Shown here: in pieces, positions 15,381 through 55,920 of the stretch
How the letters are laid out: each line of letters opens with the position of its first letter
How positions within the stretch are numbered: the stretch's first letter is position 1
DNA from: Woeseiaceae bacterium
GTDB lineage: Bacteria; Pseudomonadota; Gammaproteobacteria; Steroidobacterales; Woeseiaceae
Direction: 5' to 3'
DNA: 64,000 nt
Assembly (NCBI GenBank): GCA_030066075.1
Contig: JASJCH010000021.1
Span: forward strand, 1,710 to 65,709
Made by a program: the position numbers and the translations under genes
Notes under the pieces: model-generated
The model's database searches: none
What the model saw: the letters and a program-made list of their open reading frames with translations, nothing else
Told to the model about the DNA's origin: nothing

Positions 15381-15510
15381 GGCGCGCGAGTATACCGGAA
15401 CGGCGGCGGAGTGCTCCACGTTTGCCGCTGCTGCCCGCGGCACGCGCGTTTTCCGCCAAACAGGTCCTTTTTGAGCGACCCGGATTCCGTCATTGTGGGA
15501 GAATATGACG

Positions 15511-18500: not shown

Positions 18501-19533
18501 CGATTTTGCGCGTTCAATCTGGATGCCTTCGGGAGATTCGGTCGCCGTGGCCACGCCCGATGCGTCGCGCATCATTATTGGCGACCAGAACGGCAACGTG
18601 CATGTCATTCCGGCCGATGCGGGCCGCGACGGTCTGCTGCAGCGCGCGCAGGAACTCAGTTTCTTCGGCCACAGCGCCGAGGTGCGGCACGTCGCAGTCA
18701 GCGCCGACGGCCAGCTCGCAGCCAGCGCGGCTGACGACAACACGTTGCGCATCTGGAGTGTCGAAGACGGGCTGCCGAGGCCATTCATCGCCGAGATCGA
18801 CGGCGTCGGGGTCGAGCGGCTGGCCTTCGAGCCCAATGGTCAGCGGCTCGGCATTCTTACGCCGGGCAGCGTACGTATCCTCGCTACCGACACTGGTGAA
18901 CAGCTGGCCAGGTTCGACCTCGGAGAGCCGCATGGCTCCATCAGCTTTGCGGACAACGGGCGCGTCTATATCGGCAGCGACTCGGGCGCGCTGCGTGCCG
19001 TCGGCGTCGATGCGACAGGAACCTGGACCATGCAGACCCTGTGGCAGAGCGACACCGGCATTCGCTGGCTGGAGGCGGCGCCGCGATCGCGTTATCTCGT
19101 TCTTGTTGACCAGGCCAATGTCGCGCAGCAATTCGATCTCGAAGAGGCGCGCATCGGGGATGCGGCGCTGACTTTGCCTGGCGACGTCGACGAAGTCGCT
19201 TTCACGCCGGGCGGACTGCGCGTGTTGTTCCGCACCCCCAACTGGGTCCATCGAGCGAGTTCGTCAGGCACCGGGCTGGTCTGGCTCGATGCCATCCTCG
19301 TACCGAAAGCGCTCGCCAGTGCGCGCATGGTATTCGGCGACCCGCGTGTCGATCAGAGTGCTGCGCTCGGCAATCATTTTTACCTGCCGGTCGCGGCAGA
19401 CGGTTACCCGCGGCTGGCCGAACTCAACTTCTCGGCAGCCCACGCTCACGGGCTATTCGGCAACAAGGAGCAGTTGCTCGAAGAATGGCAGCGCCGGTTA
19501 GCGATCGTCCCCGCGCAAGGTCCGGACGAGTAG
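15511..19533 (+). CDS. Large single-pass membrane protein: N-terminal P-loop ATPase (AAA-like/STAND-like), one TM helix, then a proprotein-convertase-type P-domain and WD40-like repeats
   Basis: Walker A APDRSGKSS (~15688-15714). Walker B IVVFVDEIQ (~15969-15995). WTAGQPYLSQ helical/winged-helix segment. Hydrophobic helix AIAAAIILAIVALPFWY (~16660-16715). P-domain-like LTINLSHARASDLRIKVIAPSGR...PLPGTWSLSVRDEE..GRLVGWNLNL (~17280-17575). Repeats with VRVWDL, VRFWQV, LRIWSV, HLWD (~17600-19250). GGGAGA lies 8 nt before the ATG at 15511; the ORF track starts at TTG 15493. Confidence 0.8.
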   Translation: MAGNSDERSPGGERAGLDATGEFFSVGTPLHAVRAGYIRRGADDVLYETVVSGRYAHVIAPDRSGKSSLVAAIAARLENNGFKVAILDLEQIGVRDAGSDAGRWYYSVAYRLLRQLRIRVDLQSWWQDKSILSNRQRLVEFYSEVLLRNVHERIVVFVDEIQCTEDLPFADQLLASIRAAHNARATDPEFSRLTFVLLGECDPLNLIDEPELSPFNITQAVALPDFTRPDLDLFATELNLPPEKAAAALDRVYFWTAGQPYLSQKLARAIARDVMDGDVVEDVDRLAMRQLAGRSALHNEPQLSHIHRQVLNDRRRCEPLLNLYGRIRKGLEVPADLGSPLHRRLIAIGLIVIDEEGNLAVRNRVYAAVFTARWANENLPTHWRTPAIAAAIILAIVALPFWYTQLLPRSYVDLLTSDTVELQVAADAYANLRSFPGHAETADSLFRSFLQNRALLAATGGEIDAIAELSGSLPDAGRLPEELRAGFWDKQARDARREERRDDALLASIQSLVLSTPQRRSQAAMFVADDYPLLRASLPGHSGGSLVFDPENLLLTAVDAAQVSQWSLDANGVQSRDSWPITALEVTPLVRRVIVDREGAVARVGLTINLSHARASDLRIKVIAPSGRAIEIDPGIDRASVNEDIRIPAAQLRDLIGEPLPGTWSLSVRDEELGVAGRLVGWNLNLNSQGLVEDFQRGLNIADPVERETDNLWVSEDGRHAVARAMQSDSARVWDLAFATPVRAVAVNELEQVIGLSAGAKYLVTATQDFVHLWDTATGRRSSMLPIGAASASAVLTDDRAHLFVQRRTDADTTFELWSLDVGDVVARLEVAGTPALVSLDASGQRVAIADYDRAVRVWDLRTGELIVQIDLEAQPSALSLAYGGEVLGAVFGTAGVSMWRIDAPTRPLLEEFAEGSWQLQFSSSGARALVGRAERGFQVYDTAQGRLLGPPLGASAPGDVAGLIGFSADEQLVVTGSSESGVRFWQVPNLDESAESDFARSIWMPSGDSVAVATPDASRIIIGDQNGNVHVIPADAGRDGLLQRAQELSFFGHSAEVRHVAVSADGQLAASAADDNTLRIWSVEDGLPRPFIAEIDGVGVERLAFEPNGQRLGILTPGSVRILATDTGEQLARFDLGEPHGSISFADNGRVYIGSDSGALRAVGVDATGTWTMQTLWQSDTGIRWLEAAPRSRYLVLVDQANVAQQFDLEEARIGDAALTLPGDVDEVAFTPGGLRVLFRTPNWVHRASSSGTGLVWLDAILVPKALASARMVFGDPRVDQSAALGNHFYLPVAADGYPRLAELNFSAAHAHGLFGNKEQLLEEWQRRLAIVPAQGPDE

Positions 19534-26087: not shown

Positions 26088-26678
26088 TCAGGTGAACGAA
26101 ACCTCGGGCGCCTCGCGCACTTCCTCGGATTCGACTTCGAGGAAGCTTGCCGGGTCGAAGCGGAAAAAGCCGGCAATGACGTTGTTCGGGAAGTTCTGCA
26201 CCGAGTTGTTGTACTGCAGGACCGAGTCGTTGAAGGCCTGGCGGGAGAACGCGACCTTGTTCTCGGTCGTCGTGAGCTCCTCCTGGAACTGCATCATGTT
26301 CTGGTTGGCCTTGAGGTCCGGGTAAGCCTCGGACAGGGCGAACAGCCGGCCGAGCGCGCTGGCCAGGGCGCCCTCGGACTGCCCGAGCTCCTTGATAGCC
26401 TGCGCATTCGCGGGATCGGCCTTTGCGGCATCCAGGCTGGCGGAGGCGGCGTTGCGCGCCTTGATGACGGACTCGAGCGTCTCGCGCTCGTGTTTCATGT
26501 AGCCCTTGACGGCCTCGACGAGGTTCGGAATCAGGTCGTAGCGCCGGGTCAGCTGCACGTCGATCTGAGCGAAAGCGTTCTTTACGCGGTTGCGTTCGTT
26601 AACGAGACGGTTGTAAATACCGATGCCCCAGAACACAATCGCTGCGAGTATTGCGAGGAATACCAGGAATGAAGTCAC
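26088..26678 (-). CDS. LemA family membrane protein
   Basis: N-terminal TM helix followed by YNRLV...QIDVQLTRRYDLIPNLVE...FSRQAFNDSVLQYNN. Start reassigned to the GTG at 26678, preceded by AAGGAG at 7-nt spacing. This removes the overlap with the divergent apbE. Confidence 0.85.
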   Translation of the reverse strand: MTSFLVFLAILAAIVFWGIGIYNRLVNERNRVKNAFAQIDVQLTRRYDLIPNLVEAVKGYMKHERETLESVIKARNAASASLDAAKADPANAQAIKELGQSEGALASALGRLFALSEAYPDLKANQNMMQFQEELTTTENKVAFSRQAFNDSVLQYNNSVQNFPNNVIAGFFRFDPASFLEVESEEVREAPEVSFT

Positions 26679-26743
26679 GATCCCGCTCCTTGTCAGAAGG
26701 TCAGTTCGGAGAGCATAGCGCTCGCGCCAAGCTTTCTCTAGGA

Positions 26744-27697
26744 ATGGTGGCGCTTTTTGTGTTTTCAATCCCTGCTTACGCCGAGTGGGTTGGCGACGCG
26801 CGACCGTTAATGGGCACGGAGGTCAGCGTGCGGCTATGGCACGAGGACGCAGCGGTCGGCCGGGAGATCGTCGACAAGGTATTCGCCGAGGCGGCGCGCA
26901 TCGACCGGCTGATGAGCACTTACAAGGAAGACAGCCGGATTTCGGAGATCAATCGCAACGCGGCCGCGGAGCCGGTCGTTGCCGGTGACGAGCTGTTCCA
27001 GCTGATTCGCCGCTCGCAGGACATCTCGGTGCTGACGCGCGGCGCATTCGATATCACTTATGACAGCGTCGGGCAGCACTATGATTTTCGCAATCGGCAA
27101 CGCCCGGACGAGGCCACGGTCGCCGCGGAGCGTGAGCTCATCGATTTCCGTTTCGTCGAACTGGACCAGGCGGCCGGCACGGTTGCCTTCCGCGAGGAAG
27201 GCGTTCGCATCAATCTCGGCGGTATCGCAAAGGGCTACGTGGTCGAGCGCGGCGTCAGCATCCTGCGGATGAACGGGGTGCGTCACGGTATCGTTACGGC
27301 CGGCGGCGACTCGCGCCTGCTCGGCGACCGCCGCGGCCAGCCCTGGATGGTCGGTATTCGCGATCCGCGTGTCGATGGGGAAGTTGCTATCTCGGTACCC
27401 CTGGAGGACGAGGCCATTTCTACCTCGGGGGACTACGAGCGTTACTTCGAGGAAGGCGACACGCGCTACCACCACATCATCAAGCCCAGCACCGGGAAGC
27501 CCGCTGGCGGTGTTCACAGCGCCACGGTCTTCGGTCCCGACGCCGTGATTACCGACGCACTGTCGACGTCGGTATTCGTGCTGGGCGTCGACCAGGGCCT
27601 GCGCCTGATCGCCACGCTGCCGGATTACGAGAGCATCGTGATCGATGCGGAGGGGCGAATCTTCTACTCCGACGGCCTCCAGTCGCCGTCACCCTGA
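26744..27697 (+). CDS. apbE: FAD:protein FMN transferase (ApbE family)
   Basis: PLMGTEVSV...FDITYDS...INLGGIAKGY...AISTSGDYERYF..HHIIKPSTGKP. Start taken at the Met of MVALFVFSIPAYA. Confidence 0.85.
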   Translation: MVALFVFSIPAYAEWVGDARPLMGTEVSVRLWHEDAAVGREIVDKVFAEAARIDRLMSTYKEDSRISEINRNAAAEPVVAGDELFQLIRRSQDISVLTRGAFDITYDSVGQHYDFRNRQRPDEATVAAERELIDFRFVELDQAAGTVAFREEGVRINLGGIAKGYVVERGVSILRMNGVRHGIVTAGGDSRLLGDRRGQPWMVGIRDPRVDGEVAISVPLEDEAISTSGDYERYFEEGDTRYHHIIKPSTGKPAGGVHSATVFGPDAVITDALSTSVFVLGVDQGLRLIATLPDYESIVIDAEGRIFYSDGLQSPSP

Positions 27698-28100
27698 CGC
27701 GAGACTGTGGCAAAAAAACCAACGATCTGTCGCTGAATAGAGACGGATATTCACTTTAAATTCAGCTAGATAGCTCTATCATGGGTTGTCCGTCACCGGT
27801 CTGTTTTTGGCGTCCCGGCGGCGGCCAGACCGGGGCATTGGCGATGCCCGGGATACCTGGAAAACAACACGATTTAACGTAATCCATGATGATTGCGCGG
27901 CAGGCTCGTCGGATTCGGGTAGAGAACCGGCGCGGGATACAGCATAGATCGGCCACACTGGCTTAACGATTATGTTCAGACCAGTCGGGCCATTTGTGAC
28001 GCCAATCACTCCCGGCCGTTGGCCCTCCTGTCACCATTCATCCTCTGGATTTGCCGCCCCAGGACACGGAGTGTGCCTGGCGGAAACTACAAGGACTGAG

Positions 28101-28604
28101 ATGATGAAGATGAAGAACGCTTTTGTAGGTCTCGTATTTTGCGCATTGACGGCCACCAGCCTGGCCTCGTCCGGCAACCTCACGGGTCAGTCGGCCCCGG
28201 ATTTCGCGCTCAAGAGTTCGACGGGCGAGAACCTCCGCTTGTCTGAGTTTCGGGGTGATGTCGTCATGGTCAACTTCTGGGCGACCTGGTGCGGCCCCTG
28301 CCGCCAGGAAATGCCTCTCCTGGATGAACTGTATTCGCGTTACGGCCGCGTAGGTTTCAGCCTCCTGGGCGTCAATATCGACGACAACTCTTCCAAGGCG
28401 ATGAACATGGTGTCCGAGCTCGGCGTGAGCTTCCCGGTGCTTTTCGACGCCAGCAAGGAAGTCAGCAAGCTTTACGAGGTCGACGCCATGCCGGTGACGG
28501 TATTGATTGATCGTGAAGGCACGGTCCGCTACGTCCACCACGGTTACAAGCCCGGCTACGAAGAGATGTACCTGGATCAGATTCGCTCGCTGCTGAGGGA
28601 GTGA
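28101..28604 (+). CDS. Periplasmic TlpA/ResA-type thiol:disulfide oxidoreductase
   Basis: Signal peptide MMKMKNAFVGLVFCALTATSLA and thioredoxin motif WATWCGPC. AAGGA lies upstream of the ATG at 28101. Confidence 0.85.
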   Translation: MMKMKNAFVGLVFCALTATSLASSGNLTGQSAPDFALKSSTGENLRLSEFRGDVVMVNFWATWCGPCRQEMPLLDELYSRYGRVGFSLLGVNIDDNSSKAMNMVSELGVSFPVLFDASKEVSKLYEVDAMPVTVLIDREGTVRYVHHGYKPGYEEMYLDQIRSLLRE

Positions 28605-28632
28605 ACGGACCGCTGCGGTCGAGAGGAGAGTA

Positions 28633-29196
28633 ATGGTGACAAACCGATTGTTGATAAGTCTGCTGTCTGGCCTCCTGGTGGCTTTCGCTGCGTCCGCAGT
28701 GGCCGAGGAGGCAACGCAGGCAGATGCCGAAATGGCGCAGCGGGAGACGTTCCGCAGCCTCGATGAGGATGTGCAGGCGCTCAAGAAGGAGGTCCTGGAC
28801 CTGAACCGGGACCTGTTCCTGCTCGAGGAAGAGTTGCTGTTTCCCGCCAACTCACAAGTTGCGTTCTTCATATCGATGGATGTGGGCGAGTACTTCGATC
28901 TTGATTCGGTGAATATCAAGATCAACGGCAAGGAAGTCGCCAACTACCTGTATACCGAGCGCGAGGCGGATGCGCTGGTGCGCGGCGGCGTGCATCGCGT
29001 GCACATGGCGAACCTCAAGTCCGGGGAACACGAGCTGGTCGCGACATTTGTCGGCACGGGCCCGAACGTTCGCGACTACCGACGCGGTGCGACCCTGACG
29101 TTCGATAAAGGCATCGGCGCCAAGTACATCGAACTCGAGATCACCGACCGCGAGAAGAAGCAGCAGCCTGATTTCGTTATCAAGGAATGGGAGTGA
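28633..29196 (+). CDS. Exported protein of unknown function (coiled-coil plus beta domain), operon member
   Basis: Signal peptide ...AASAVA; heptad-like LDEDVQALKKEVLDLNRDLFLLEEELL; GAGGAGAG SD. No family recognised with confidence. Confidence 0.7.
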   Translation: MVTNRLLISLLSGLLVAFAASAVAEEATQADAEMAQRETFRSLDEDVQALKKEVLDLNRDLFLLEEELLFPANSQVAFFISMDVGEYFDLDSVNIKINGKEVANYLYTEREADALVRGGVHRVHMANLKSGEHELVATFVGTGPNVRDYRRGATLTFDKGIGAKYIELEITDREKKQQPDFVIKEWE

Positions 29197-29199
29197 TTC

Positions 29200-31068
29200 T
29201 TGCTCGGACGCGGTGCCATTATTGCTGCGCTATGCCTGTTACTCCTGGGTCTCGCGCTACCGGCGCAAGCGGCGAAGGACGATCCTGAGCCGATAGTCGT
29301 CGAGGACCCGCATTACGGCGAGGTCCTGTTCTACTTCTACCAGGATGATTACTTCCCGGCGATCGTGCGGCTGCTCGCCGCGCAGGAGCAGAACCAGCTG
29401 GACGACCACGAACAGCAGGCGGAGCTGCTGCTGGGCGGCCTGTACCTGTCCTACGGGCATCACCTCGAGGCGGCGGAAATATTCGAGCGCCTGCTTGCCG
29501 ATAACGTCAACGAGGAAATCCGGGACCGCACCTGGTTCTTCCTGGCGAAGATCTGGCTGCAGCGCGGCTATATCGACAAAGCCCAGGACGCTTTGTCCAA
29601 CCTGAGCGAAGATCTGCCCAAGAATCTGTGGCGCGAAGCGCAGATGCTGCAGTCACAGATCTATATCAACAGCGGCCAGTATGAGCAGGCGATCGAGTTG
29701 CTGGGCAATTGGAAGGGCCGTACCGAGTGGTCGCGCTACGCGAAGTTCAATCTCGGTGTCGCGTTGGTTCGCAGCGGCAATGTCGAGGCCGCGAAAGAGA
29801 TCCTGAGCGAGCTCGGCGAAATCGACCCTTACAACGACGAACTGACCGCAATCCGTGACAAGGCCAACCTCGCCCTCGGCTACGCGCTGCTGCAGGATGG
29901 CCAGCCGCAGGCCGCGAAAGTACCGCTGCAACGCGTGCGCCTAGACGGCCCTTTTTCCAACAAGGCGTTGCTCGGAGTGGGCTGGGCCGACGCCGAGGTC
30001 AATAATTACCGTCGCGCCCTGGCGCCCTGGATGGAGTTGCGCGGTCGCGACGTTCTCGACCCGGCCGTTCAGGAGTCCATGCTGGCCATTCCGTACGCGC
30101 TGGCCAAGCTGGACGCCGTAAGCCAGGCCGCCGATCACTACCTGAACGCGATCGAGGCTTTCTACGAGGAAACCAATCGGATCGACCGGATGATCGGCCT
30201 GATCGAGTCCGGCAAGATTTTCGATTTCTTCCTCGACGAGGATCCTCTCGGCACGACCGGCTGGTACTGGCGTCTCGAAGCGCTGCCGGAAGGTCCCGAG
30301 GCACGCTACCTCTACTTGATGCTTGCGTCCCACGAGTTCCAGGAAGGCCTCAAGAACTACCGCGACCTGCATTACCTGAACCGCAATCTCGATAGCTGGC
30401 GGGGCAGCATCGACGTGTTCGCGAACATGCTCGAAACGCGCAAGGAGGCTTACGACGAGCGCCTGCCGCGTATCGAGGACGCGCTGGCGCGGGCCGATAT
30501 TGACGAACTCGTGCAACGCAAGTTCGAGTTCGATTCCGAGCTCGACCGGATAGAGCGCGAATTCGACTGGCTCGCGTTCGCCAACGAGCGCGAGTTCGAG
30601 AACTGGAGCGAGATATCCGAGTTCGCCTCGAACCCGGCACTGAACGCCGACATTCCCGAGGCGGCCGAGGTCCGCGAAAAGGTGGAGTTGCTCCAGGGCG
30701 TCCTGCAGTGGGAACTGGAGAAGCAGTTCAAAGACCGGCTCTGGCGCGCCCGTCGTGACGTGCGTGAAACCGGCGAATCGCTCGTCGAGGCCCAGCGCGC
30801 GCGACGCCAGATCGATGACACGATGCGCGACGAAGCGCTGCGGTTCGAGGACTTCAGCAATCGCGTCTATGGTCTTGGCCCGAAAATCGACGACATGCAG
30901 CTGCAAGTTGCCGAGGCGATGGGCAGCCAGCGCGCCTTCCTGCAGTCGATCGCGGTCGGTGAGTTGCAGGCACAGAAACAGCGCCTCGACGTCTACACGG
31001 TGCAGGCGCGCTTCGCGCTTGCGGCCATCTACGACCTTGCTGCCTCGACGGGGAGCGGGGACGAATGA
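29200..31068 (+). CDS. Exported TPR plus coiled-coil protein
   Basis: TTG start 3 nt after the upstream stop; signal peptide ...LALPAQA; TPR-like helices in the N-terminal half; long Glu/Arg-rich coiled coil in the C-terminal half. Confidence 0.75.
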   Translation: MLGRGAIIAALCLLLLGLALPAQAAKDDPEPIVVEDPHYGEVLFYFYQDDYFPAIVRLLAAQEQNQLDDHEQQAELLLGGLYLSYGHHLEAAEIFERLLADNVNEEIRDRTWFFLAKIWLQRGYIDKAQDALSNLSEDLPKNLWREAQMLQSQIYINSGQYEQAIELLGNWKGRTEWSRYAKFNLGVALVRSGNVEAAKEILSELGEIDPYNDELTAIRDKANLALGYALLQDGQPQAAKVPLQRVRLDGPFSNKALLGVGWADAEVNNYRRALAPWMELRGRDVLDPAVQESMLAIPYALAKLDAVSQAADHYLNAIEAFYEETNRIDRMIGLIESGKIFDFFLDEDPLGTTGWYWRLEALPEGPEARYLYLMLASHEFQEGLKNYRDLHYLNRNLDSWRGSIDVFANMLETRKEAYDERLPRIEDALARADIDELVQRKFEFDSELDRIEREFDWLAFANEREFENWSEISEFASNPALNADIPEAAEVREKVELLQGVLQWELEKQFKDRLWRARRDVRETGESLVEAQRARRQIDDTMRDEALRFEDFSNRVYGLGPKIDDMQLQVAEAMGSQRAFLQSIAVGELQAQKQRLDVYTVQARFALAAIYDLAASTGSGDE

Positions 31069-33887
31069 TGGTCCGTGGTCTCACACTCCTGTTATTGCTC
31101 GTAACAGCCGCGTTCGCCCAGGCGGACGAGGTCAAGAAGCGTGACACGATTGCAAGCCTCGAGGACAAGGAAGTCGATGTCCGCAAAGGCAACGTCATCA
31201 TCGGCAGCACCGACCTCGCACGCGACCAGTACCGCTCATTCCTCGAACTCTCATCCGACGATCCGGAGTTGCGCGCAGAAGCGATGCGCCGTCTCGGCGA
31301 CCTCGAGCTGGACGCGACCGAGGCCGAGCAGTTGGCCGCAAATGTCGACACGCTCAACCACGCCAGCTTCAACAATGCCGTCCAGTTGTACCAGCAACTC
31401 CTGGAGGCCTACCCGGAGTACCGTCGCAACGACACGGTGCTGTACCAGCTCGCGCGTGCTTACGAAATCGGCGGCCGGACCGACGAGGCGCTGCAGGTTC
31501 TCGACGAACTCGTGACGCAGTTCCCGGATACCCCCCTGATTGACGAGGCGCAGTTTCGCCGTGGCGAAATGCTGTTCCTGCGCAAGCGGTACAACGATGC
31601 CGAGATGGCATACCAGGACGTCGTCGCCTACGGGCCGTCCGGCAAGTTCTACGAGCAGTCGCTTTACAAGCTGGGCTGGTCGCAGTTCAAACTGGCCTGG
31701 CACGAGGACAGCCTCGTGAGTTTCTTCGAGCTGCTCGACCGCAAGGTCAGTGGCATCCAGATCCAGGAAGGCGACAAGCGCTTCGAACAGCTAAGCCGTG
31801 CGAACCAGGAGCTCGTCGAAGATACCTTCCGCGTGCTCAGCATCAGCTTCTCGTACATGGACGGCGCGGCCAGCATCACGGAGTTCCTCGAAGGGCGGGA
31901 GCATCCCGAGTACGCCTGGATCGTGTACATGAACCTCGGCGACCTCTACCTCGAGAAAGAGCGCTACCAGGACGCGGCGCAGACTTACGAGGCGTTCGTC
32001 GAGCAGGATCCGTTTCATCCGAAATCGCCGCTGTTGCAGGTCGAGGTTATCGAGTCCTACAAGCGTGGCGGGTTTCCGAGCCTGGTGCTCGACGGCAAGA
32101 AGGGTTTCGTCGAACGCTATGGCATGGACGGCCAGTTCTGGGTGCGCAACCCCCGTGCCGAGAACACGGAGGTCGAGGCGCACCTGAAAGCAAACCTCAA
32201 CGATCTCGCCAAGTACTACCACGCCGAAGCGCAGCAGGATGGCAAGCGCGCCGACTACCAGGAAGCCGCGCGCTACTACCGCAAGTACCTGTCCTATTTC
32301 CCCGGCGAGCCCGATACCGCCAACACGAACTTCCTGCTGGCTGAAGTGCTGTTCGAAAGTAACGACTTCGACGCGGCGACCGCCGAGTACGAGCGTACCG
32401 CTTACGGCTACCCGAACCACGAGAAGGCGTCCGAGGCCGGCTATGCCGCGCTGCTCTCCTACCGCGAGCACGAGCAGACGCTGGCTGGCGCCGAGCAGGC
32501 CCAGGCGCGCGCCGCCTGGCACCAGCAGTATCTCGACAGCGGCCTGAAGTTCGCCGACACCTTTCCGGAACATCCGGAGTCGGGCGCCGTGCTGACCTCG
32601 GTTGCCGAGGACCTGTTCGGCCAGAACCAGTTCGACCTTGCCATCGCGGTCGGTCAGGCCGTGGTGGGCAAGCAGCCGCCGGTCAAGCCTGAACTGGCGC
32701 GCACCGCCTGGACGGTCATCGCTCATTCGCAGTTCGACCTGAGCAATTTCGGGGCGGCCGAGCAGGCGTATTACCAGTTGCGCACGTTCACGCCCGTGGA
32801 CGACGTGGAAGCCAATGAAGAAGTGAAAGACCGCATCGCGTCGTCGATCTACAAGCAGGGTGAGATGGCGCGTGACATGGGCATGCTCGAGGAGGCCGTT
32901 ACGCATTTCACTCGCCTGGGCCAGGTCGTGCCTGACTCCGAGTTTCGGATGACCGCCGAATACGACGCGGCTGCCGCGCTGATTAATCTCAAGGCCTGGG
33001 GCCGCGCCTCGGCTGCGCTGGAGAAATTCCGCGCCGACTACCCGGACAGCGAGTTCACCGACGAGATCACGCAAAACCTCGCCGTGTCCTACCTCGAGTC
33101 GGGTAACAGCGTGCAGGCTGCGCAGGAGTTCGAGCGCATTGCGGCCGCCCCTACGAGCACCGCCGACATTCGTCGCGAGGCGCTGTGGAAAGCCGCTGAC
33201 CTCTATAAGAGCAGCAACACGATCTCGAGCGAGTACCGCGTGCTCTCCAATATCATCGCGCAGTATCCCAACCCGCTGGCAGAGTCGATCGAAGCGCGTT
33301 ACCGCCTGCTGGAGATCGAACGGGGGCAGGGCAATGCGGCCGCTGTCACGGCGCGTCTGGAGGAGCTGATCCGCGTCGATGCGACGGCTGGTTCGCAGCG
33401 CTCGGACCGGACACGCTACCTGGCGGCCAAGGCGTCGCTGGAACTGGCCGAGCCCGTGTTGCGGCGTTTCACGGTGGTCAAGCTCGATCAGCCCCTGGCC
33501 GAAAGCATGAAACTCAAGCGTGAGCTGATGGAGGACGTCATCGAGGTCTATACCGATGCCGCCGACTACGGCGTCGCCGAGGTCACGACCGCCGCGACCT
33601 TCCAGCTCGGCCAGGTCTACGAGCAGTTCAGCCGGGACCTGATGGATTCGGAACGGCCGGCGGACCTCGATGCGGCCGCGCTGGAGCAATACGAGCTGCT
33701 GCTCGAGGAACAAATGTACCCGTTCGAGGAGAAGGCGATCGACCTTTACAAGGCGAATACCGATCGTGCGCCCGACGGCGTCTACGACGAATGGGTGAAG
33801 AAGAGCTTTAACCGCCTCGCCGGCCTGATGCCGGCCAGGTATGCGAAGAGGGAGCGCAGTGAAGATGTCGTTACATCGCTCTATTAA
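31065..33887 (+). CDS. Large exported tetratricopeptide-repeat protein (940 aa)
   Basis: ATGA start/stop overlap with the upstream gene; signal peptide MMVRGLTLLLLLVTAAFAQA; TPR-type A/Y/L periodicity throughout (e.g. YQLARAYEIGGRTDEALQVLDELVTQFPD). Confidence 0.8.
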   Translation: MMVRGLTLLLLLVTAAFAQADEVKKRDTIASLEDKEVDVRKGNVIIGSTDLARDQYRSFLELSSDDPELRAEAMRRLGDLELDATEAEQLAANVDTLNHASFNNAVQLYQQLLEAYPEYRRNDTVLYQLARAYEIGGRTDEALQVLDELVTQFPDTPLIDEAQFRRGEMLFLRKRYNDAEMAYQDVVAYGPSGKFYEQSLYKLGWSQFKLAWHEDSLVSFFELLDRKVSGIQIQEGDKRFEQLSRANQELVEDTFRVLSISFSYMDGAASITEFLEGREHPEYAWIVYMNLGDLYLEKERYQDAAQTYEAFVEQDPFHPKSPLLQVEVIESYKRGGFPSLVLDGKKGFVERYGMDGQFWVRNPRAENTEVEAHLKANLNDLAKYYHAEAQQDGKRADYQEAARYYRKYLSYFPGEPDTANTNFLLAEVLFESNDFDAATAEYERTAYGYPNHEKASEAGYAALLSYREHEQTLAGAEQAQARAAWHQQYLDSGLKFADTFPEHPESGAVLTSVAEDLFGQNQFDLAIAVGQAVVGKQPPVKPELARTAWTVIAHSQFDLSNFGAAEQAYYQLRTFTPVDDVEANEEVKDRIASSIYKQGEMARDMGMLEEAVTHFTRLGQVVPDSEFRMTAEYDAAAALINLKAWGRASAALEKFRADYPDSEFTDEITQNLAVSYLESGNSVQAAQEFERIAAAPTSTADIRREALWKAADLYKSSNTISSEYRVLSNIIAQYPNPLAESIEARYRLLEIERGQGNAAAVTARLEELIRVDATAGSQRSDRTRYLAAKASLELAEPVLRRFTVVKLDQPLAESMKLKRELMEDVIEVYTDAADYGVAEVTTAATFQLGQVYEQFSRDLMDSERPADLDAAALEQYELLLEEQMYPFEEKAIDLYKANTDRAPDGVYDEWVKKSFNRLAGLMPARYAKRERSEDVVTSLY

Positions 33888-34518
33888 TTGGCGGCTGTTG
33901 CTGCCGGTCGGCATGCTCGTCATCGCCGGTTGCGCGGGCTCCGGGTCGAAGCCCGACGCCGCGACCGCGCGTGAGCAGGGTGAGCCGGCGCCGGGACAGG
34001 AACGCGTTCTGCCCGAGATTCCGCCCGCGGCGCAAACTCTCTATGAGCAGGCCGTGGCGGTCATGGCATCCGGTGATTTCGTGGACGCGGAGTTGCGCCT
34101 CAAGGAATTCCTGCTGCAATACCCGGCCTATCCCGGCGCGCACGTCAATCTCGCGATCATTCACTCGCAGAACGAAAACGAGGCCGCCGCGCAGGCGTCG
34201 ATCGACGCTGCGCTGGCCCTGGACCCCAGTCATCCCCCCGCATTGAACCAGCAGGGCATGCTATTTCGCAGAAATGGAAATTTTGTCGAGGCAGAAGCCG
34301 CTTATTTGAAGGCCGTCACAGCTTCGCCCGATTACGCCTTGGCACACTACAACCTGGGTGTTCTCAACGAGCTATACCTCCAGCGGCTCGATGTTGCACT
34401 GCAGCATTTCGAGGTTTACCAGCAGCTGGTCGGTGAAGACAAGCAGGTTGAGAAATGGATCGCAGATCTGAGGCGCCGCGTTGCGGCAACTCAGCGCACG
34501 GCAAACGTGGCGGAGTGA
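33865..34518 (+). CDS. TPR lipoprotein
   Basis: Lipobox MLVIAGC and 3-4 TPR units (...AHVNLAIIHSQ.., ALNQQGMLFRRNGNFVEAEAAYLKAVTASPDYALAHYNLGVL). Start uncertain (33841 or 33865). Confidence 0.75.
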   Translation: MSLHRSINWRLLLPVGMLVIAGCAGSGSKPDAATAREQGEPAPGQERVLPEIPPAAQTLYEQAVAVMASGDFVDAELRLKEFLLQYPAYPGAHVNLAIIHSQNENEAAAQASIDAALALDPSHPPALNQQGMLFRRNGNFVEAEAAYLKAVTASPDYALAHYNLGVLNELYLQRLDVALQHFEVYQQLVGEDKQVEKWIADLRRRVAATQRTANVAE

Positions 34519-34523
34519 CGGAC

Positions 34524-34973
34524 ATGAATACGATGACATTCAGAGTATTCGGCCCCCGATTCATGCTGGCCATGTTGTTGGCAGCGTTTGCCACTTTTGC
34601 GCAGGAGGCGGACGAGCTGGAGCCGGCCGTGGATACCTCGGCGATCGAACCCGCGGTGGATACGTCGAGCGTGGCTGACCAGTCGATCGATGACATCGAG
34701 CCAGCCGTACCGACGGCGGTATTGGCCGCCGACGTAACGCGCGACGAGTCCGGCAGCCAGGTGATGGACCGGCTCGAGCTGGGGCGCACCGAGATTACCG
34801 GCAACCAGGAACTGCCGAAGGTGCTGTACATCGTGCCCTGGCAGAAGTCGGATCCCGGCGACCTGATGGGCAGGCCGGTCAACACGTTGCTCGACGACGT
34901 ACTGGCGCCGCTGGACCGCGAAGAGTTTATGAGGCAGGTCGAGTACCACACCGACCTGTACGGAGAAGAGTAG
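34524..34973 (+). CDS. Exported acidic protein of unknown function, operon member
   Basis: Signal peptide ...AAFATFAQEA and a conserved-looking C-terminus ELPKVLYIVPWQKSDPGDLMGRP. Start at the Met of MNTMTFRVFG. Confidence 0.65.
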   Translation: MNTMTFRVFGPRFMLAMLLAAFATFAQEADELEPAVDTSAIEPAVDTSSVADQSIDDIEPAVPTAVLAADVTRDESGSQVMDRLELGRTEITGNQELPKVLYIVPWQKSDPGDLMGRPVNTLLDDVLAPLDREEFMRQVEYHTDLYGEE

Positions 34974-34995
34974 TAGGAGCGCCCCATGGGCGCGA
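34973..34995 (+). repeat. REP-like palindromic element GTAGGAGCGCCCCATGGGCGCGA
   Basis: Identical 23-mer at 54912..54934 and, inverted, within 59578..59623. Internal GCGCCC/GGGCGC hairpin. Confidence 0.8.
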
Positions 34996-35019
34996 GTTGT
35001 TAAACAGAGGAGCAAGACA

Positions 35020-35661
35020 ATGGGCACAATCGTGCGTTTTTTCCAGGAAGGCGGTGCATTCATGTACCCGATCCTGTTCGTGTTTGCATTCGGCGTGGCG
35101 ATCGCCATCGAGCGCTGGATGTACCTGACGATGTCGGGTGCAGCCAACCGCTCGCTGTGGAAGAAGATCGTCCCGTTCCTGAAAGCGGGCAATTTCCAGG
35201 AGGCGGCCCAGCACACGGCCAAGTCCAAGGCTGCGATCGGTTCGATCCTGACCTACGGGCTGTACCGGGTGAAATCGGCGCGCCGTCGTGACGACATCGA
35301 GAAGGCGATGGAGGAGAGCATGATGGAGGTGCTGCCGCGGCTCGAAAAGCGCACGCATTACCTCGCGACGCTCGCCAATATTGCGACACTGCTCGGCCTG
35401 CTCGGCACGATTATCGGCCTGATCCGCGCGTTCACGGCCGTATCGAACGCCAACCCGGCCGACAAGGCTGACCTGCTGTCGGCGTCGATCTCGGTTGCGA
35501 TGAACACCACGGCATTCGGCCTGATGGTCGCTATCCCGCTGCTGCTGATTCACGCGTTGCTGCAGACCAAGACCAACCAGCTCGTGGACAGCCTCGAGAT
35601 GGCCAGCGTCAAGTTCCTCAACGCCGTAACGGAACGCCAGCTCAAGACTGCCGGAGCGTAA
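35020..35661 (+). CDS. MotA/TolQ/ExbB-family proton channel subunit
   Basis: Three TM helices and the conserved C-terminal region ATLANIATLLGLLGTIIGLIRAF...AMNTTAFGLMVAIPLLLIH. GAGGAG SD. Confidence 0.9.
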   Translation: MGTIVRFFQEGGAFMYPILFVFAFGVAIAIERWMYLTMSGAANRSLWKKIVPFLKAGNFQEAAQHTAKSKAAIGSILTYGLYRVKSARRRDDIEKAMEESMMEVLPRLEKRTHYLATLANIATLLGLLGTIIGLIRAFTAVSNANPADKADLLSASISVAMNTTAFGLMVAIPLLLIHALLQTKTNQLVDSLEMASVKFLNAVTERQLKTAGA

Positions 35662-35664
35662 GGT

Positions 35665-36180
35665 ATGTACCATCGCCGCAAGGGCGGCCGTCGCGCTAAC
35701 CAGGAGACGGCTGAGCTCAACATCACGGCCTTTATGAACCTGATGGTCATTCTGGTGCCGTTCCTGCTGATCACCGCGGTGTTCTCGCGTTTGGCGGTTC
35801 TCGAACTGAACCTGCCAGGCTCCTCAACCGAGCCCGCAGATCCGCAGGAGCAGACGTTCCAGCTTGAAGTCATCGTTCGTAAAGACAAGATAGAAGTCGG
35901 CGATCGCAACCAGGGCCTGCTCGGCGTTTACCCCAATACCGAAGAGGGTGAATACGACTTTAACGCCCTGAGCGAAAAACTGTCCCAGCTCAAGAAGAGC
36001 TATCCGACCAAGACGGATGCCTCGATTCTGCTTGAGCAGGACATCGAGTACGACACGCTCGTGCAAATCATGGACCGGGTACGGGTCGAGGAAGAGGCCG
36101 TGGGACTGACGGTAGTCCGCATTGACCTGTTCCCCGACATATCCATCGGCGACGCACCGGTCGCGTCCGGAGGTGCATAA
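35665..36180 (+). CDS. ExbD/TolR-family protein (first of two)
   Basis: N-terminal LNITAFMNLMVILVPFLLI TM with the conserved acidic/polar signature, then a periplasmic domain. Confidence 0.85.
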   Translation: MYHRRKGGRRANQETAELNITAFMNLMVILVPFLLITAVFSRLAVLELNLPGSSTEPADPQEQTFQLEVIVRKDKIEVGDRNQGLLGVYPNTEEGEYDFNALSEKLSQLKKSYPTKTDASILLEQDIEYDTLVQIMDRVRVEEEAVGLTVVRIDLFPDISIGDAPVASGGA

Positions 36181-36182
36181 GC

Positions 36183-36710
36183 ATGGTCAAGTCAGCCCGC
36201 GCCAAACGCATGGAGAAGCACCACAAGCGCAACAAGAGCTCTGGTGGTCTCAATCTCGTTTCGCTGATGGATATTTTCACGATCCTCGTGTTCTTCCTGC
36301 TCGTCAACTCCTCGAGTGTCGAGACGCTGCCGAACGCGAAGGACCTGCAGCTGCCCGAGTCCATTGCCGAGGAGAAGGCGAAGGAAACCGTCGTCATCCT
36401 TATTGGTGAAGAAGACATCATCGTCCAGGGCACCCCGGTTGCGAAGGTCGCCGATGTCATGAATATCAAGGGCAACGACATCCCGGCACTGCGCGAGGCG
36501 CTGAAGTCGCAGAACGATCGGGTGCTGCGGCGCGAGGCCCAGGACGACATCGCGGGCCGTGAAGTGACGATCATGGGCGACAAGGAAATCCCGTACCGGC
36601 TGCTGAAGAAGGTCATGGCGACGTGCACGGCGTCGGATTACGGGCAGATTTCACTTGCGGTACTGCAGAAGAGCTCCGAGAAGCTCGACGAACTGCAGGC
36701 GGCAAGGTAG
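36183..36710 (+). CDS. ExbD/TolR-family protein (second of two)
   Basis: LNLVSLMDIFTILVFFLLV TM segment with the conserved Asp, then an ExbD-like periplasmic domain. Confidence 0.85.
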   Translation: MVKSARAKRMEKHHKRNKSSGGLNLVSLMDIFTILVFFLLVNSSSVETLPNAKDLQLPESIAEEKAKETVVILIGEEDIIVQGTPVAKVADVMNIKGNDIPALREALKSQNDRVLRREAQDDIAGREVTIMGDKEIPYRLLKKVMATCTASDYGQISLAVLQKSSEKLDELQAAR

Positions 36711-36733
36711 CAAGGACAGCTTAGGAGTAGCGC

Positions 36734-37690
36734 GTGGATTTACCGTTCTACAGAGAGTACGAACTGCCATGGACAGCCGACTCCGGCCAGGAGCGCAAGT
36801 TCCAGCGGATGCTCGGCACGATCTTCCTGGTCGTCCTGGTGCTAAGTATCGCCTGGCCGTTTCTGCCCGCGCCGGAGAGGGAATTCGATGACGTTATCGA
36901 GATTCCGCCGCAGGTCGCGAAACTGCTGCTCGAAGAGCAGCCGTTGCCGCCGCCGCCTCCGCCCGAACCGGAGCCCGAGGAAGAGCCTGAGCCCGAGGAG
37001 GAGCCTGAGCCCGAGCAGGTTGCCGAGGAACCGGAACCCGAGCCCGAAATAATCCCCGAGCCGGAGCCCGAGCCGGATCGCGAGGAAATCGCGCGTGAGC
37101 AGGCGCAGGCCGCGTTCATGCCGTTTGCCGAGGACCTGGCGGATCTCGTCGACCAGGATTTGCTCAACAAGGTGCAGGACGACCGTGAGCTGACCGCATC
37201 AGTTGGCGAAGCGCAGCGCAATGAGCGCTCGATGATCACGTCGAACGTCGGTGCGGCTTCCGGCGGCATCAACACGGCGCAGATGAGCCGTAACACGGGC
37301 GGCACCGGCATCGCCGGCCGCACGACGACCAAGATCGACAGTCCCGTCGCCGACATCGCCCCTGCGGGCGGCGCGCGTCGCGAGGGCTCGAGCGGCAAGG
37401 CGTCACGTTCGCGCGAGGAGATCGAGCTGGTCTTCGATCGCAACAAGGGCGCAATTTTCGCCCTTTACAACCGCGCGCTGCGTAACGACCCGACGCTGGA
37501 AGGCAAGCTGGTCCTGCGGCTGACGATCGCGCCCAATGGCGCCGTGACGTTTTGCGAAGTGGTTTCGAGCGAACTCGGCGACCCGGATCTCGAGGCCAAG
37601 CTGGTGGCTCGCATCAAGCTGTTCCGCTTCGAGGCCAAGGACGTCGAGCCGATCACGACCACCAAGCCGATCGATTTCTTCCCGGCCTAG
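36734..37690 (+). CDS. TonB-like energy-transducer with an acidic Glu-Pro spacer and an AgmX/PglI-type C-terminal domain
   Basis: TAGGAG then GTG start; single TM IFLVVLVLSIAWPF; PPPPPPEPEPEEEPEPEEEPEPEQVAEEPEPEPEIIPEPEPEP. The C-terminus IELVFDRNKGAIFALYNRALRNDPTLEGKLVLRLTIAPNGAV...ITTTKPIDFFPA is TonB-C-like. Confidence 0.8.
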   Translation: MDLPFYREYELPWTADSGQERKFQRMLGTIFLVVLVLSIAWPFLPAPEREFDDVIEIPPQVAKLLLEEQPLPPPPPPEPEPEEEPEPEEEPEPEQVAEEPEPEPEIIPEPEPEPDREEIAREQAQAAFMPFAEDLADLVDQDLLNKVQDDRELTASVGEAQRNERSMITSNVGAASGGINTAQMSRNTGGTGIAGRTTTKIDSPVADIAPAGGARREGSSGKASRSREEIELVFDRNKGAIFALYNRALRNDPTLEGKLVLRLTIAPNGAVTFCEVVSSELGDPDLEAKLVARIKLFRFEAKDVEPITTTKPIDFFPA

Positions 37691-38383
37691 CTAGTATTCG
37701 TCGCGCCGCTTCACCCACTCCTGTGGGTACGTGAGGTCGTCCTCGTTGCGGCCCTTCGGCACGATGTCGAGTAACTGGTAGGTCGCGTTGTAAGGGTCCA
37801 ATCCACGCGCATAGGTTGAATACGTGTGAAAGACGCTGTCTCCGTCAAGCGTGAACACGCTGATGCCCGGTAATTCCTCGATCGCGGCGTTGCCATCCTC
37901 GTAGTTGTAATCGGCTGTGCCTGCGGCGATCTGCCGCGGCGAAAACGACACGCCGAAGTCGTAGTTGAAGGAACTCGTGGCCGACGAGGCCCACGGGAAG
38001 CGCCAGCCCATGCGCTCGCGGTAGGCCAGCAACAGGTCGAGCGGCGCCCGCGATATTGCTACGAGGCTGACGTCGCGTGCCGCCAGGTGCTCCACCGAGC
38101 CGTCGTAAGTGTCCGCCCAGAACGAGCAGGACTTGCAGCCCGCATCCCATTCCGGGTGAAACATGAAGTGATAGACGATCAGCTGCGACGCGTCGCCGAA
38201 CAGGCCGGCGAGCGTCTTGTGGCCGCTCTCCGTCTCGAAGCCGTAGTCCTCGTCGATCTTGCGCCAGGGCAGGGCCCGGCGCTTCTGCGCCAGCTCGTCG
38301 CGCGCCGCCTGGAAGGCCTTCTCCTCTTCCAGCAGCTGCTTGCGCGCCGCCAGCCAGTCCGCGTCGGAAACGATTCGGTTCAT
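37691..38383 (-). CDS. DUF899 thioredoxin-like family protein
   Basis: WLAARKQLLEEEKAFQAARDELAQKRRALPW...IVYHFMFHPEWDAGCKSCSFWAD. GGGGAG SD before the ATG at 38383. Confidence 0.75.
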   Translation of the reverse strand: MNRIVSDADWLAARKQLLEEEKAFQAARDELAQKRRALPWRKIDEDYGFETESGHKTLAGLFGDASQLIVYHFMFHPEWDAGCKSCSFWADTYDGSVEHLAARDVSLVAISRAPLDLLLAYRERMGWRFPWASSATSSFNYDFGVSFSPRQIAAGTADYNYEDGNAAIEELPGISVFTLDGDSVFHTYSTYARGLDPYNATYQLLDIVPKGRNEDDLTYPQEWVKRRDEY

Positions 38384-38481
38384 GCCGGTACTCCCCCGAG
38401 GTTGCATGCGCCAGGTGCCAGTTTACACTGTCGCTCGGTCCGGCCCGTGGGGCCGATGTCTGTCATTCACCAGGATCACTG

Positions 38482-51700: not shown

Positions 51701-52241
51701 GCGCCGCGCGGTCGCCATCCAGATGATCATTTCGCGCGAGCTCGGGCTGAACTTCTGCGAGAACCCGTGGCAGGGTTCCTTCATCATCAACGAGCTCACC
51801 GACCTGGTCGAGGAAGCTGTCTACCAGGAATTCGAGCGCATCTCCGACCGTGGCGGCGTGCTTGGCGCTATGGATACGATGTACCAGCGCGGCAAGATCC
51901 AGGAGGAGAGCATGTACTACGAGCACAAGAAGCACGACGGCTCGCTGCCCCTGATTGGCGTCAACACGTTCCTGCCCAAGGAAGGCCAGGAGGACGAGGT
52001 GCACGAGCTCGAACTGATTCGTTCCAGCGAGGAGGAGAAACAGGACCAGATCCGCCACGTGCGCGGCTTCCAGGGCACGCATGCCGAGGAGAGCGGCCCG
52101 GCAATCGAGCGCTTACAAGCGGTGGCCCGTGATCGCGGCAACGTGTTCGAGGAACTGATGCAGACCGTGAAGTCTAATTCCCTCGGGCAGATCTCCAACG
52201 CCCTTTACGACGTCGGCGGCGAGTACCGCCGCAACATGTAG
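48798..52241 (+). CDS. icmF: Fused isobutyryl-CoA mutase IcmF (B12-binding domain + MeaB-type GTPase + mutase catalytic domain)
   Basis: N-terminal B12 domain [13 protein letters not shown]...VSSYQGGH. G-protein [26 protein letters not shown]. Large C-terminal mutase barrel. 1147 aa. Confidence 0.88.
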
Positions 52242-55823: not shown

Positions 55824-55837
55824 TATAATCGGCGCGA

Positions 55838-55918
55838 AACAGGGGTGGCCTCGCGGCCTGAGATCCAATCCGGGAACCCTCAGAACCTGATCCGGGTAAT
55901 GCCGGCGTAGGAAGGGAA
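55838..55918 (+). promoter_or_regulatory. TPP (THI-box) riboswitch
   Basis: AGGGGTGGCC..GGCCTGAGA...GGGAACCCTCAGAACCTGATCCGGGTAATGCCGGCGTAGGAAGG matches the conserved GGGGUGC / CUGAGA / ACCUGAUCNGGNUAAUNCCNGCGUAGGGA core. The 3' end contains the GGAAGGG SD just before the ATG at 55921. Confidence 0.9.
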
Positions 55919-55920
55919 TA

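Follow-up and report, generated by a model that had tools for sequence, protein, structure and literature searches.

The closest described relatives of the gene cluster reported here come from Luciano et al. 2011 (PMC3169522), who defined a core of the Myxococcus Agl-Glt machinery composed of gltC, gltD, gltE, gltG, aglR, aglQ, and aglS together with one gene that has no myxobacterial homolog. This core complex formed a single cluster in a number of Gammaproteobacteria, in a betaproteobacterium, and in Geobacter and Fibrobacter, the carriers including Marinobacter, Cellvibrio, and Methylibium. The core genes alone were insufficient for motility, most carriers were nongliding, and the function of the clusters was left open (PMC3169522). 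Here we describe an operon of ten genes, g1 to g10, on the + strand at positions 28101-37690 of a 64-kb stretch of contig JASJCH010000021.1 (the window) from a marine-sediment Woeseiaceae bacterium. We put the probability that this operon is a ten-gene version of the ancestral, nonmotile Agl-Glt core complex, a kind of cluster known since 2011, at about 0.7.

Gene order, protein sizes, and spread of the operon

The open reading frame (ORF) listing of the window placed the ten genes as follows, where TPR stands for tetratricopeptide repeat and aa for amino acids:

g1, 28101-28604, +: exported thioredoxin-fold thiol:disulfide oxidoreductase of the TlpA/ResA/DsbE type; start ATG within ORF 27972-28604
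g2, 28633-29196, +: exported 187-aa protein with a long helix and a beta-sandwich; no family
g3, 29200-31068, +: exported protein of 622 aa; TPRs in the N-terminal part, C-terminal half helical; GltC position
g4, 31065-33887, +: exported 940-aa TPR scaffold; GltD position
g5, 33865 (or 33841)-34518, +: 217-aa TPR lipoprotein; GltE position
g6, 34524-34973, +: exported acidic 149-aa protein, mostly disordered; position of the "additional gene"
g7, 35020-35661, +: 213-aa proton-channel subunit of the MotA/TolQ/ExbB family; AglR position
g8, 35665-36180, +: first ExbD/TolR paralog, 171 aa; AglQ position
g9, 36183-36710, +: second ExbD/TolR paralog, 175 aa; AglS position
g10, 36734-37690, +: TonB/TolA-like single-pass transducer, 318 aa; GltG position

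From g1 to g10, successive genes are spaced by 28, 3, -4, -23, 5, 46, 3, 2, and 23 nucleotides (nt), the maximum being 46 nt. The listing thereby confirmed the original prediction, made from the letters of the window alone, of ten co-directional genes with gaps of at most 46 nt or overlaps. The products named in that prediction, among them one TolQ-like protein, two TolR-like proteins, an AgmX/PglI-type anchor, and TPR proteins, were borne out by Pfam and NCBIfam searches with g1 to g10.

Gene order and protein sizes were compared with those in Table S3 of the 2011 study. That table gives products of 634, 941, 243, (1227), 217, 170, 163, and 371 aa for Methylibium Mpe_A1224-1231 and of 550, 939, 162, (1599), 221, 176, 162, and 321 aa for Marinobacter Maqu_1602-1595, with the place of an unlisted locus tag shown here in parentheses (PMC3169522). 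In the same order, g3 to g10 encode 622, 940, 217, (149), 213, 171, 175, and 318 aa. The sizes of the TPR proteins fit the listed homologs of GltC (about 550 to 660 aa; MXAN_2541 homologs), GltD (about 939 to 965 aa), and GltE (about 160 to 265 aa). The position of g6 is that of the unlisted tags Mpe_A1227, Maqu_1599, CJA_3316, and Tgr7_0540, which lie between the gltE and aglR homologs in Table S3. This matching of order and sizes argues that g3 to g10 are the core complex and that g6 is its additional gene. It also supports the earlier preference for an Agl/Glt-type core over a classical TonB system, as do model NF033768 and the failed Exb and Tol cutoffs described below; the expectation that like cores occur in nongliding proteobacteria agrees with Luciano et al. 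2011 (PMC3169522).

When one genome per species was scanned by pattern, at least 591 genomes contained relatives, and loci were compared in the best 80 of these. The 80 genome loci (numbered with the prefix L, as are all loci below) were from Woeseiaceae, Lentisalinibacter, and Steroidobacteraceae-like bacteria. Further samples were 80 soil/peat metagenome loci (L087-L166) and three more distant contigs with two relatives of one of them. The order g1 to g10 was kept in every long-enough contig of the 80 best loci (about 60 of 80), down to approximately 40% identity. Twenty-two of the 80 soil/peat loci reach g1, and all 22 carried the same module. It was also present in the five additional contigs, with g1 truncated by the contig edge in L086. 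The intact module was thus present in Woeseiaceae and Steroidobacteraceae-like bacteria as well as in soil/peat and high-GC clades. With its order repeated in all related loci of sufficient length, the ten-gene arrangement is far beyond chance.

The products differed in their degree of conservation. Mean identity of the soil clade to the window was 66% for g2 and 63% for g7, and for g1, g3 to g5, and g8 to g10 it was 40 to 49%. Where the TPR proteins drop to 42 to 49% identity, g2 retains 58 to 82%. By this measure, g2 and g7 are the two best-conserved products of the module. Both g1 and g2 are fixed parts of it, in place wherever a contig reaches them. Relatives of g2 numbered at least 7983 in 90% clusters and those of g6 numbered 6510 (1190 representatives at 50% identity); the named relatives of both proteins belong to Woeseiaceae metagenome-assembled genomes.

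Motor, transducer, and scaffold proteins

The motor genes encode one MotA_ExbB protein (g7; PF01618, 1.2e-30) and two ExbD proteins (g8 and g9; PF02472, 7.8e-19 and 6.1e-17) in Pfam. On models of the classical systems, g7 scored 66 bits for TolQ (cutoff, 221), 43 bits for ExbB (cutoff, 206), and 38.8 bits for exbB2 (cutoff, 135). For g8, no ExbD or TolR model exceeded 31 bits (ExbD, 31 versus 216 and 26 versus 123; TolR, 31 versus 127), and g9 reached 23 bits for TolR and matched none of the ExbD models, the ExbD/TolR cutoffs being 123 to 216. Among PDB sequences, g7 matched TolQ at 1.3e-9 and ExbB at 2.5e-6, with 32% identity to Escherichia coli TolQ over 116 aa and 30% identity to ExbB over 99 aa. 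A homolog search that started from a distant TolQ-like protein yielded metagenome proteins only. Identity between g8 and g9 was approximately 32% and confined to 57 aa. Neither matched an AglQ or AglS model in NCBIfam at E values up to 10, and it is gene position that would make g8 the counterpart of AglQ and g9 that of AglS.

TolR, ExbD, and AglQ carry a proton-binding Asp at the position that corresponds to residue 25 of g8. In the membrane helix of g8, this residue was Asn in 60 of 72 orthologs (Woeseiaceae-type loci) and Asp in 12 distant ones; Asn was also found in L083 and L086, and the rest of the helix was invariant. The membrane Asp of g9, Asp30, was present in 72 of 72 orthologs. In Myxococcus, the aglQ D28N mutation abolished proton conductance and paralyzed the machine.

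AglRQS has been modeled as a 5:1:1 complex that binds the membrane helix of GltG, and an AglR-GltG interaction was detected in a two-hybrid assay (Luciano et al. 2011, PMC3169522). The protein in the GltG position, g10, is composed of an invariant cytoplasmic start, DLPFYREYELPW, a membrane helix, an IPPRI segment, a Pro/Glu-rich spacer, and an AgmX/PglI-type domain that contains Cys274, and its C-terminal end is an invariant TTTKPIDFFPA. The cytoplasmic part measures about 25 residues and contains no FHA or other domain in Pfam. The C-terminal domain matched NF033768, the NCBIfam model of the AgmX/PglI C-terminal domain, with 61.8 bits (cutoff, 40). The GltG model was matched at 1.6e-11 over model positions 418 to 628, its periplasmic part, and the periplasmic part of the GltJ model aligned too. 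In comparison, the TonB C-terminal signal was borderline (TIGR01352, 28.9 bits versus 27.1; Pfam TonB_C, 21 versus 24.6), TonB model PRK10819 gave 27 bits versus 265, and a PDB sequence search returned no TonB or TolA chain. TonB, TolA, and von Willebrand A (vWA)-type transducers dock on their motors via an SHLS motif with a His. The membrane helix of g10 contained no His in the window protein or in the 58 orthologs listed, and the conserved IPPRI after the helix occupies the place of the TonB/TolA "motor box."

The three proteins in the GltC, GltD, and GltE positions all contain TPRs in Pfam: g3 matched TPR_19 (1.4e-12; residues 57 to 250), g4 matched TPR_6 (3.4e-29), and g5 matched TPR families. 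The repeats of g4 are of the YbgF/CpoB and BamD types, since the protein reached 122 bits on tol_pal_ybgF (cutoff, 90) and 86.6 bits on OM_YfiO via its repeated TPR units. The GltE model gave 29 bits (4e-7) with g5 against a cutoff of 225. The lipobox of g5, VIAG-C, was conserved in 53 of 54 orthologs and has Ala at +2, which predicts an outer-membrane destination. In a high-GC clade, the homologs of g4 and g5 form one protein of 1127 to 1141 aa in three independent assemblies:

L085, 6621-10004: g4-g5 fusion
L167, 6015-9416: g4-g5 fusion
L168, 5961-9386: g4-g5 fusion

Models of the Myxococcus machine place GltD in contact with GltE, and the fusion fits this modeled contact.

GltF, which is encoded after gltE in Myxococcus, has been described as disordered and is modeled with a strand (residues 94 to 111) that lies on the GltG domain and a helix (residues 133 to 147) that binds GltC. 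In the operon, the protein that follows g5 is g6, which has a pI of 4.1, a signal peptide, a conserved LEPAVDTS motif, and then a variable Ala/Pro-rich stretch. The alignment revealed an almost invariant block, ITGNxELPKVLYIVPW...GRPVNSLLDEVLAPVDR, whose first part (residues 90 to 106) is strand-like. The AlphaFold2 monomer model of g6 had a pLDDT (predicted local distance difference test) score of 64 and was disordered save for helices at residues 120 to 127 and 132 to 146, the sole confident part. No Pfam family was matched by g6, and no GltF model was matched in NCBIfam at E values up to 10. On these features, g6 resembles GltF in layout and gene position. Of the profile comparisons that had been proposed, those with Glt and Agl models gave a match for g10 (NF033768 and GltG), a weak one for g5 (GltE), and none for g6, g8, and g9 with GltF, AglQ, and AglS models.

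Added subunits, conserved cysteines, and upstream region

The first two genes encode proteins beyond the published core. g1 matched Pfam Redoxin (4.7e-31; Redoxin/AhpC-TSA) and has a WCGPC active site; its nearest NCBIfam models were ResA, TlpA, and DsbE, all under cutoff (ResA, 126.8 bits versus 170). As the original prediction had stated, a thioredoxin is part of neither described system, Agl/Glt or TonB. No Pfam or NCBIfam family was matched by g2, including NCBIfam at E values up to 10. Its AlphaFold2 model (mean pLDDT, 78) consisted of a helix to about residue 69 and an eight-strand beta-sandwich at residues 75 to 186. The earlier description of g2 as an exported coiled-coil protein thus held for the long helix, and a coiled coil alone was not what the model showed. 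When this model was compared with the PDB by Foldseek, only generic beta-sandwiches were returned (E above 2e-3, with none below 1e-3; TM score at most 0.42), so that a function cannot be read from the fold. A tblastn search of plasmids with g2 gave no match. The NCBI label "AraC family transcriptional regulator," which is attached to g2 relatives P0133, P0175, and P0207 of Woeseiaceae, was rejected because a signal peptide is present and a DNA-binding domain is absent.

The exported portions of g2 to g10 were nearly cysteine-free. The lone conserved cysteines were Cys148 of g9 (68 of 72 orthologs) and Cys274 of g10 (56 of 59 orthologs). Among the genome loci, the CxxC of g1 was missing from L073, L077, and L078 only, and it was only in these loci that Cys274 of g10 was changed to Val or Ala. 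In the same clade in soil/peat metagenomes, CxxC was missing from 22 of 22 g1 proteins and the cysteine from 80 of 80 g10 proteins, and the g9 Cys was kept; in g1 of that clade, a WAGDSR-type sequence replaces WCGPCR. This joint loss suggests that g1 chemistry is linked to the g10 domain. The clade that lacks CxxC retains the gene, which shows that even a redox-dead g1 is preserved as a protein.

Upstream of the operon, the following two elements were recognized:

27726-27782, +: conserved intergenic block; downstream of the ApbE gene, a short hairpin with a T-run, followed by a sigma-70-like promoter
27995-28037, +: CRP-type palindrome, TGTGA-N6-TCAC(T), at 27995-28010, and an extended -10-like element, CTGTCACCAT, at 28028-28037

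Within the first element, a promoter scan located TTTAAA (27755-27760) and, after 16 nt, TATCAT (27777-27782). The block was conserved in about 50 Woeseiaceae-type loci and the flanking intergenic sequence was not; its role as a hairpin and promoter is predicted. For the palindrome, TGTGA-N6-TCAC had one exact match in the 64-kb window, compared with 0.09 expected by chance. The palindrome was found 5' of g1 in 55 of 56 Woeseiaceae-type loci, mostly at a constant 33 to 34 nt before CTGTCACCAT, and it was absent from the distant clades examined. When CTGTCACCAT is read as TG-n-CACCAT at -15 to -7, the palindrome is centered at -41.5. In class II CRP-family promoters, the activator site is centered at -41.5. 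The operon is probably transcribed under a CRP-family activator, with a binding site and a start site (near 28044) predicted from the DNA. No RNA family was found by Rfam in the 400-nt leader.

The 5' neighbor of the operon is the ApbE (flavin transferase) gene (26651-27697, +), which is followed by a 400-nt spacer before g1; the hairpin and promoter-like block lies between the two. ApbE adjoins the operon in Woeseiaceae-type loci and in L083 only and is unlinked in more distant clades. The 3' neighbor is a convergent DUF899 gene (37691-38407, -), whose stop abuts the stop of g10 with no spacer. Its product is thioredoxin-like with a CxxC, and a DUF899 match was found 3' of g10 in just 4 of the 80 genome loci (L003, L004, L030, and L051). 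Elsewhere in the window, a thiamine pyrophosphate (TPP) riboswitch (55835-55926, +; 56.5 bits, above the gathering score) directly precedes a TonB-dependent receptor gene (55921-57990, +); the riboswitch and the receptor (Plug plus barrel) suggest thiamine-regulated outer-membrane uptake. Two large genes encode a 1346-aa protein with a STAND-like architecture (15493-19533, +; AAA_35 NTPase, proprotein-convertase P-domain, and WD40 repeats) and a 1147-aa IcmF-like fusion (48798-52241, +; B12-binding, MeaB GTPase, and methylmalonyl-CoA-mutase).

Proposed function and relation to known systems

By analogy with the Myxococcus machine, g7 would form a TolQ-like pentamer in the inner membrane, and a TolR-like g8-g9 heterodimer in its pore would be driven by the proton motive force. 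This motor would pull on the adjacent, anchored g10, a TonB/TolA-like protein whose periplasmic arm and C-terminal domain would dock on the TPR scaffold of g4 (GltD-like), g5 (GltE-like), and g3 (GltC-like). g6 would be a disordered adaptor; as modeled for GltF, it would probably extend the g10 domain by a beta-strand and g3 by a helix. g1 and g2 would be additional fixed subunits, with g1 probably holding the lone g10 cysteine reduced. We infer from this arrangement that the machine would act mechanically on the cell surface or outer membrane and would serve neither import through TonB-dependent receptors nor gliding.

Several points weigh against identifying the operon as the Agl-Glt core and against the machine proposed from it. 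The homology to GltC, GltD, GltE, and AglR/Q/S is drawn from published phylogenomics, synteny, and size. Direct matches to Glt models were limited to the g10 domain, which passes its cutoff, and the weak match of g5 to GltE, which looks like a generic TPR match. The operon encodes no outer-membrane partner or substrate, the literature searched assigns no function or phenotype to such clusters outside Myxococcus, and the contacts in the proposed machine are set by analogy. In addition, the Asn of g8 lies at the aglQ D28N position, so the Woeseiaceae motor may work differently, and the joint loss of CxxC and Cys274 was probably one evolutionary event.

A more detailed version of the core-complex reading is tentative and, taken as a whole, rather unlikely. 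In this version, g1 and g2 are previously unrecognized subunits of the core, and g1 keeps or resets the g10 Cys by thiol gating, making force redox-responsive. The Woeseiaceae motor would run on a single Asp, that of g9, because the AglQ-like partner carries Asn, and g6 would be the missed counterpart of GltF.

The main rival is a Tol-Pal-like paralog in which a TolQRA-type motor and CpoB-like TPR proteins stabilize or constrict the outer membrane in growth or division, and we consider it unlikely. Although g7 is more similar to TolQ than to ExbB and AglRQS has been described as TolQR-like, the TolQ and TolR equivalog cutoffs were missed by a factor of at least 3. The YbgF/CpoB-type TPR units of g4 and the predicted outer-membrane location of the g5 lipoprotein would suit a Tol-like role, as would the fact that TolA binds CpoB; however, a TolB or Pal homolog was present neither in nor beside the module in the loci examined, and g10 has an AgmX/PglI-type domain. 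The carriers reported in 2011 are, moreover, ordinary proteobacteria in which a canonical tol-pal locus is expected, which counts against this reading. Within the 64-kb window, no canonical tol-pal or exbBD-tonB locus was found.

A lower probability still is given to a specialized TonB system (exbB-exbD1-exbD2-tonB with TPR accessories, of the Xanthomonas or Vibrio TonB2 type) that energizes TonB-dependent receptors. Three such receptors are encoded in the window, yet a receptor was adjacent to the module in none of the loci examined. Xanthomonas tonB loci also contain two ExbD paralogs, which favors this reading, but g7 and g8 fall far under the ExbB and ExbD cutoffs and g9 matches no ExbD model. 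The TonB topology, Pro-rich spacer, and borderline TonB C-terminal signal of g10 are offset by its lack of a PDB TonB or TolA match and of an SHLS-type His. CRP-type control would suit nutrient scavenging; however, the operon encodes one PF01618 protein and two PF02472 proteins and no TtpC-like second MotA-type protein. Teredinibacter turnerae T7901 carries the cluster (Table S3, PMC3169522), and a T. turnerae mutant without the four canonical tonB genes did not grow on ferric turnerbactin or cellulose. This defect, seen with the cluster intact, is indirect genetic evidence that in T. turnerae the transducer of the cluster is no substitute for TonB.

A working gliding or surface-translocation machine like that of Myxococcus is very improbable: although the motor stoichiometry and the GltC/D/E/G-type parts are shared, the Group A genes (gltA, gltB, gltH, gltI, gltJ, gltK, and a CglB-type adhesin) are absent from the operon and the scanned window ORFs, the FHA domains on the cytoplasmic side of GltG are missing from g10, and carriers of the core genes, which by themselves give no motility, mostly do not glide (PMC3169522).

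The favored reading is therefore a scaffold machine that is driven by protons, spans the periplasm, and acts on the cell surface or outer membrane, because the cluster does not replace TonB in T. turnerae and because no receptor, TolB, Pal, or polysaccharide-export gene adjoins the module in the loci examined. A Tol-like role is its main competitor, and a TonB role is weaker. What is new here are the two added fixed subunits, the cysteine covariation, the stator variant with Asn, the fusion of the GltD-like and GltE-like proteins, the resemblance of g6 to GltF in layout, and the CRP-type promoter. The kind of system is unchanged by these results and their value is incremental. The module is very widespread among uncultured Gammaproteobacteria of sediment and soil, its signature small protein being encoded in the genomes of at least 591 species, and the role of the Agl-Glt core in nongliders would reveal the evolutionary origin of the gliding and spore-coat machines of Myxococcus. 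Experimental handles are provided by the two extra conserved subunits, the candidate redox link, the natural Asp-to-Asn stator, the GltD-GltE fusion, and the CRP-type promoter.

Compared with ExbB-ExbD-TonB systems, including Xanthomonas exbD1/exbD2 and Vibrio TonB2 (TtpB/C/D), the operon shares the protein superfamilies and the Pro-rich spacer, as well as TPR accessories in the case of TonB2. It differs in its AgmX/PglI-type domain and in having no adjacent receptor. Vibrio TonB2 (TtpB-TtpC-ExbB2-ExbD2-TonB2-TtpD) includes TtpC, a large second MotA/TolQ/ExbB protein, and a single ExbD, and neither feature is found here. Tol-Pal (TolQ-TolR-TolA-TolB-Pal-CpoB) likewise has a 5:2-type proton motor, a three-domain periplasm-spanning transducer, and CpoB-type TPR partners. 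In contrast to Tol-Pal, the operon has no TolB/Pal and no SHLS His, carries two unlike TolR paralogs and not a homodimer, and misses the equivalog cutoffs. The vWA-type force-transducer clusters (PMC12204202) resemble the operon in encoding a transducer anchored in the membrane along with a TPR protein, a single TolQ-like protein, and two unlike TolR-like proteins. In their transducer, the domain is of the von Willebrand A type and the SHLS His is retained, whereas in g10 the domain is TonB-like (AgmX/PglI) and the helix lacks a His.

The Agl-Glt gliding and Agl-Nfs spore-coat machines of Myxococcus xanthus are more similar. Like the operon, they combine a TolQ-like protein and two unlike TolR-like proteins with a TonB-like transducer that has an AgmX/PglI domain, a large TPR scaffold, a TPR lipoprotein, and a small disordered adaptor encoded beside the lipoprotein gene. 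Unlike these machines, the operon has no GltA/B/H barrels, GltK, GltI, GltJ, or CglB, no FHA domains in the transducer, and no link to MglA, MreB, or AglZ; conversely, no thioredoxin or g2 has been described for them. The nearest match is to the 2011 core clusters of Methylibium, Marinobacter, and Cellvibrio (CJA_3312-3319), which contain the same eight genes in the same order, co-directional and of near-equal sizes (PMC3169522). Their GltG homolog is likewise short (about 320 aa) and without a cytoplasmic domain. Relative to these clusters as listed, the operon described here adds g1 and g2 at its 5' end and, in Woeseiaceae, carries Asn for the proton-binding Asp in the paralog at the AglQ position.

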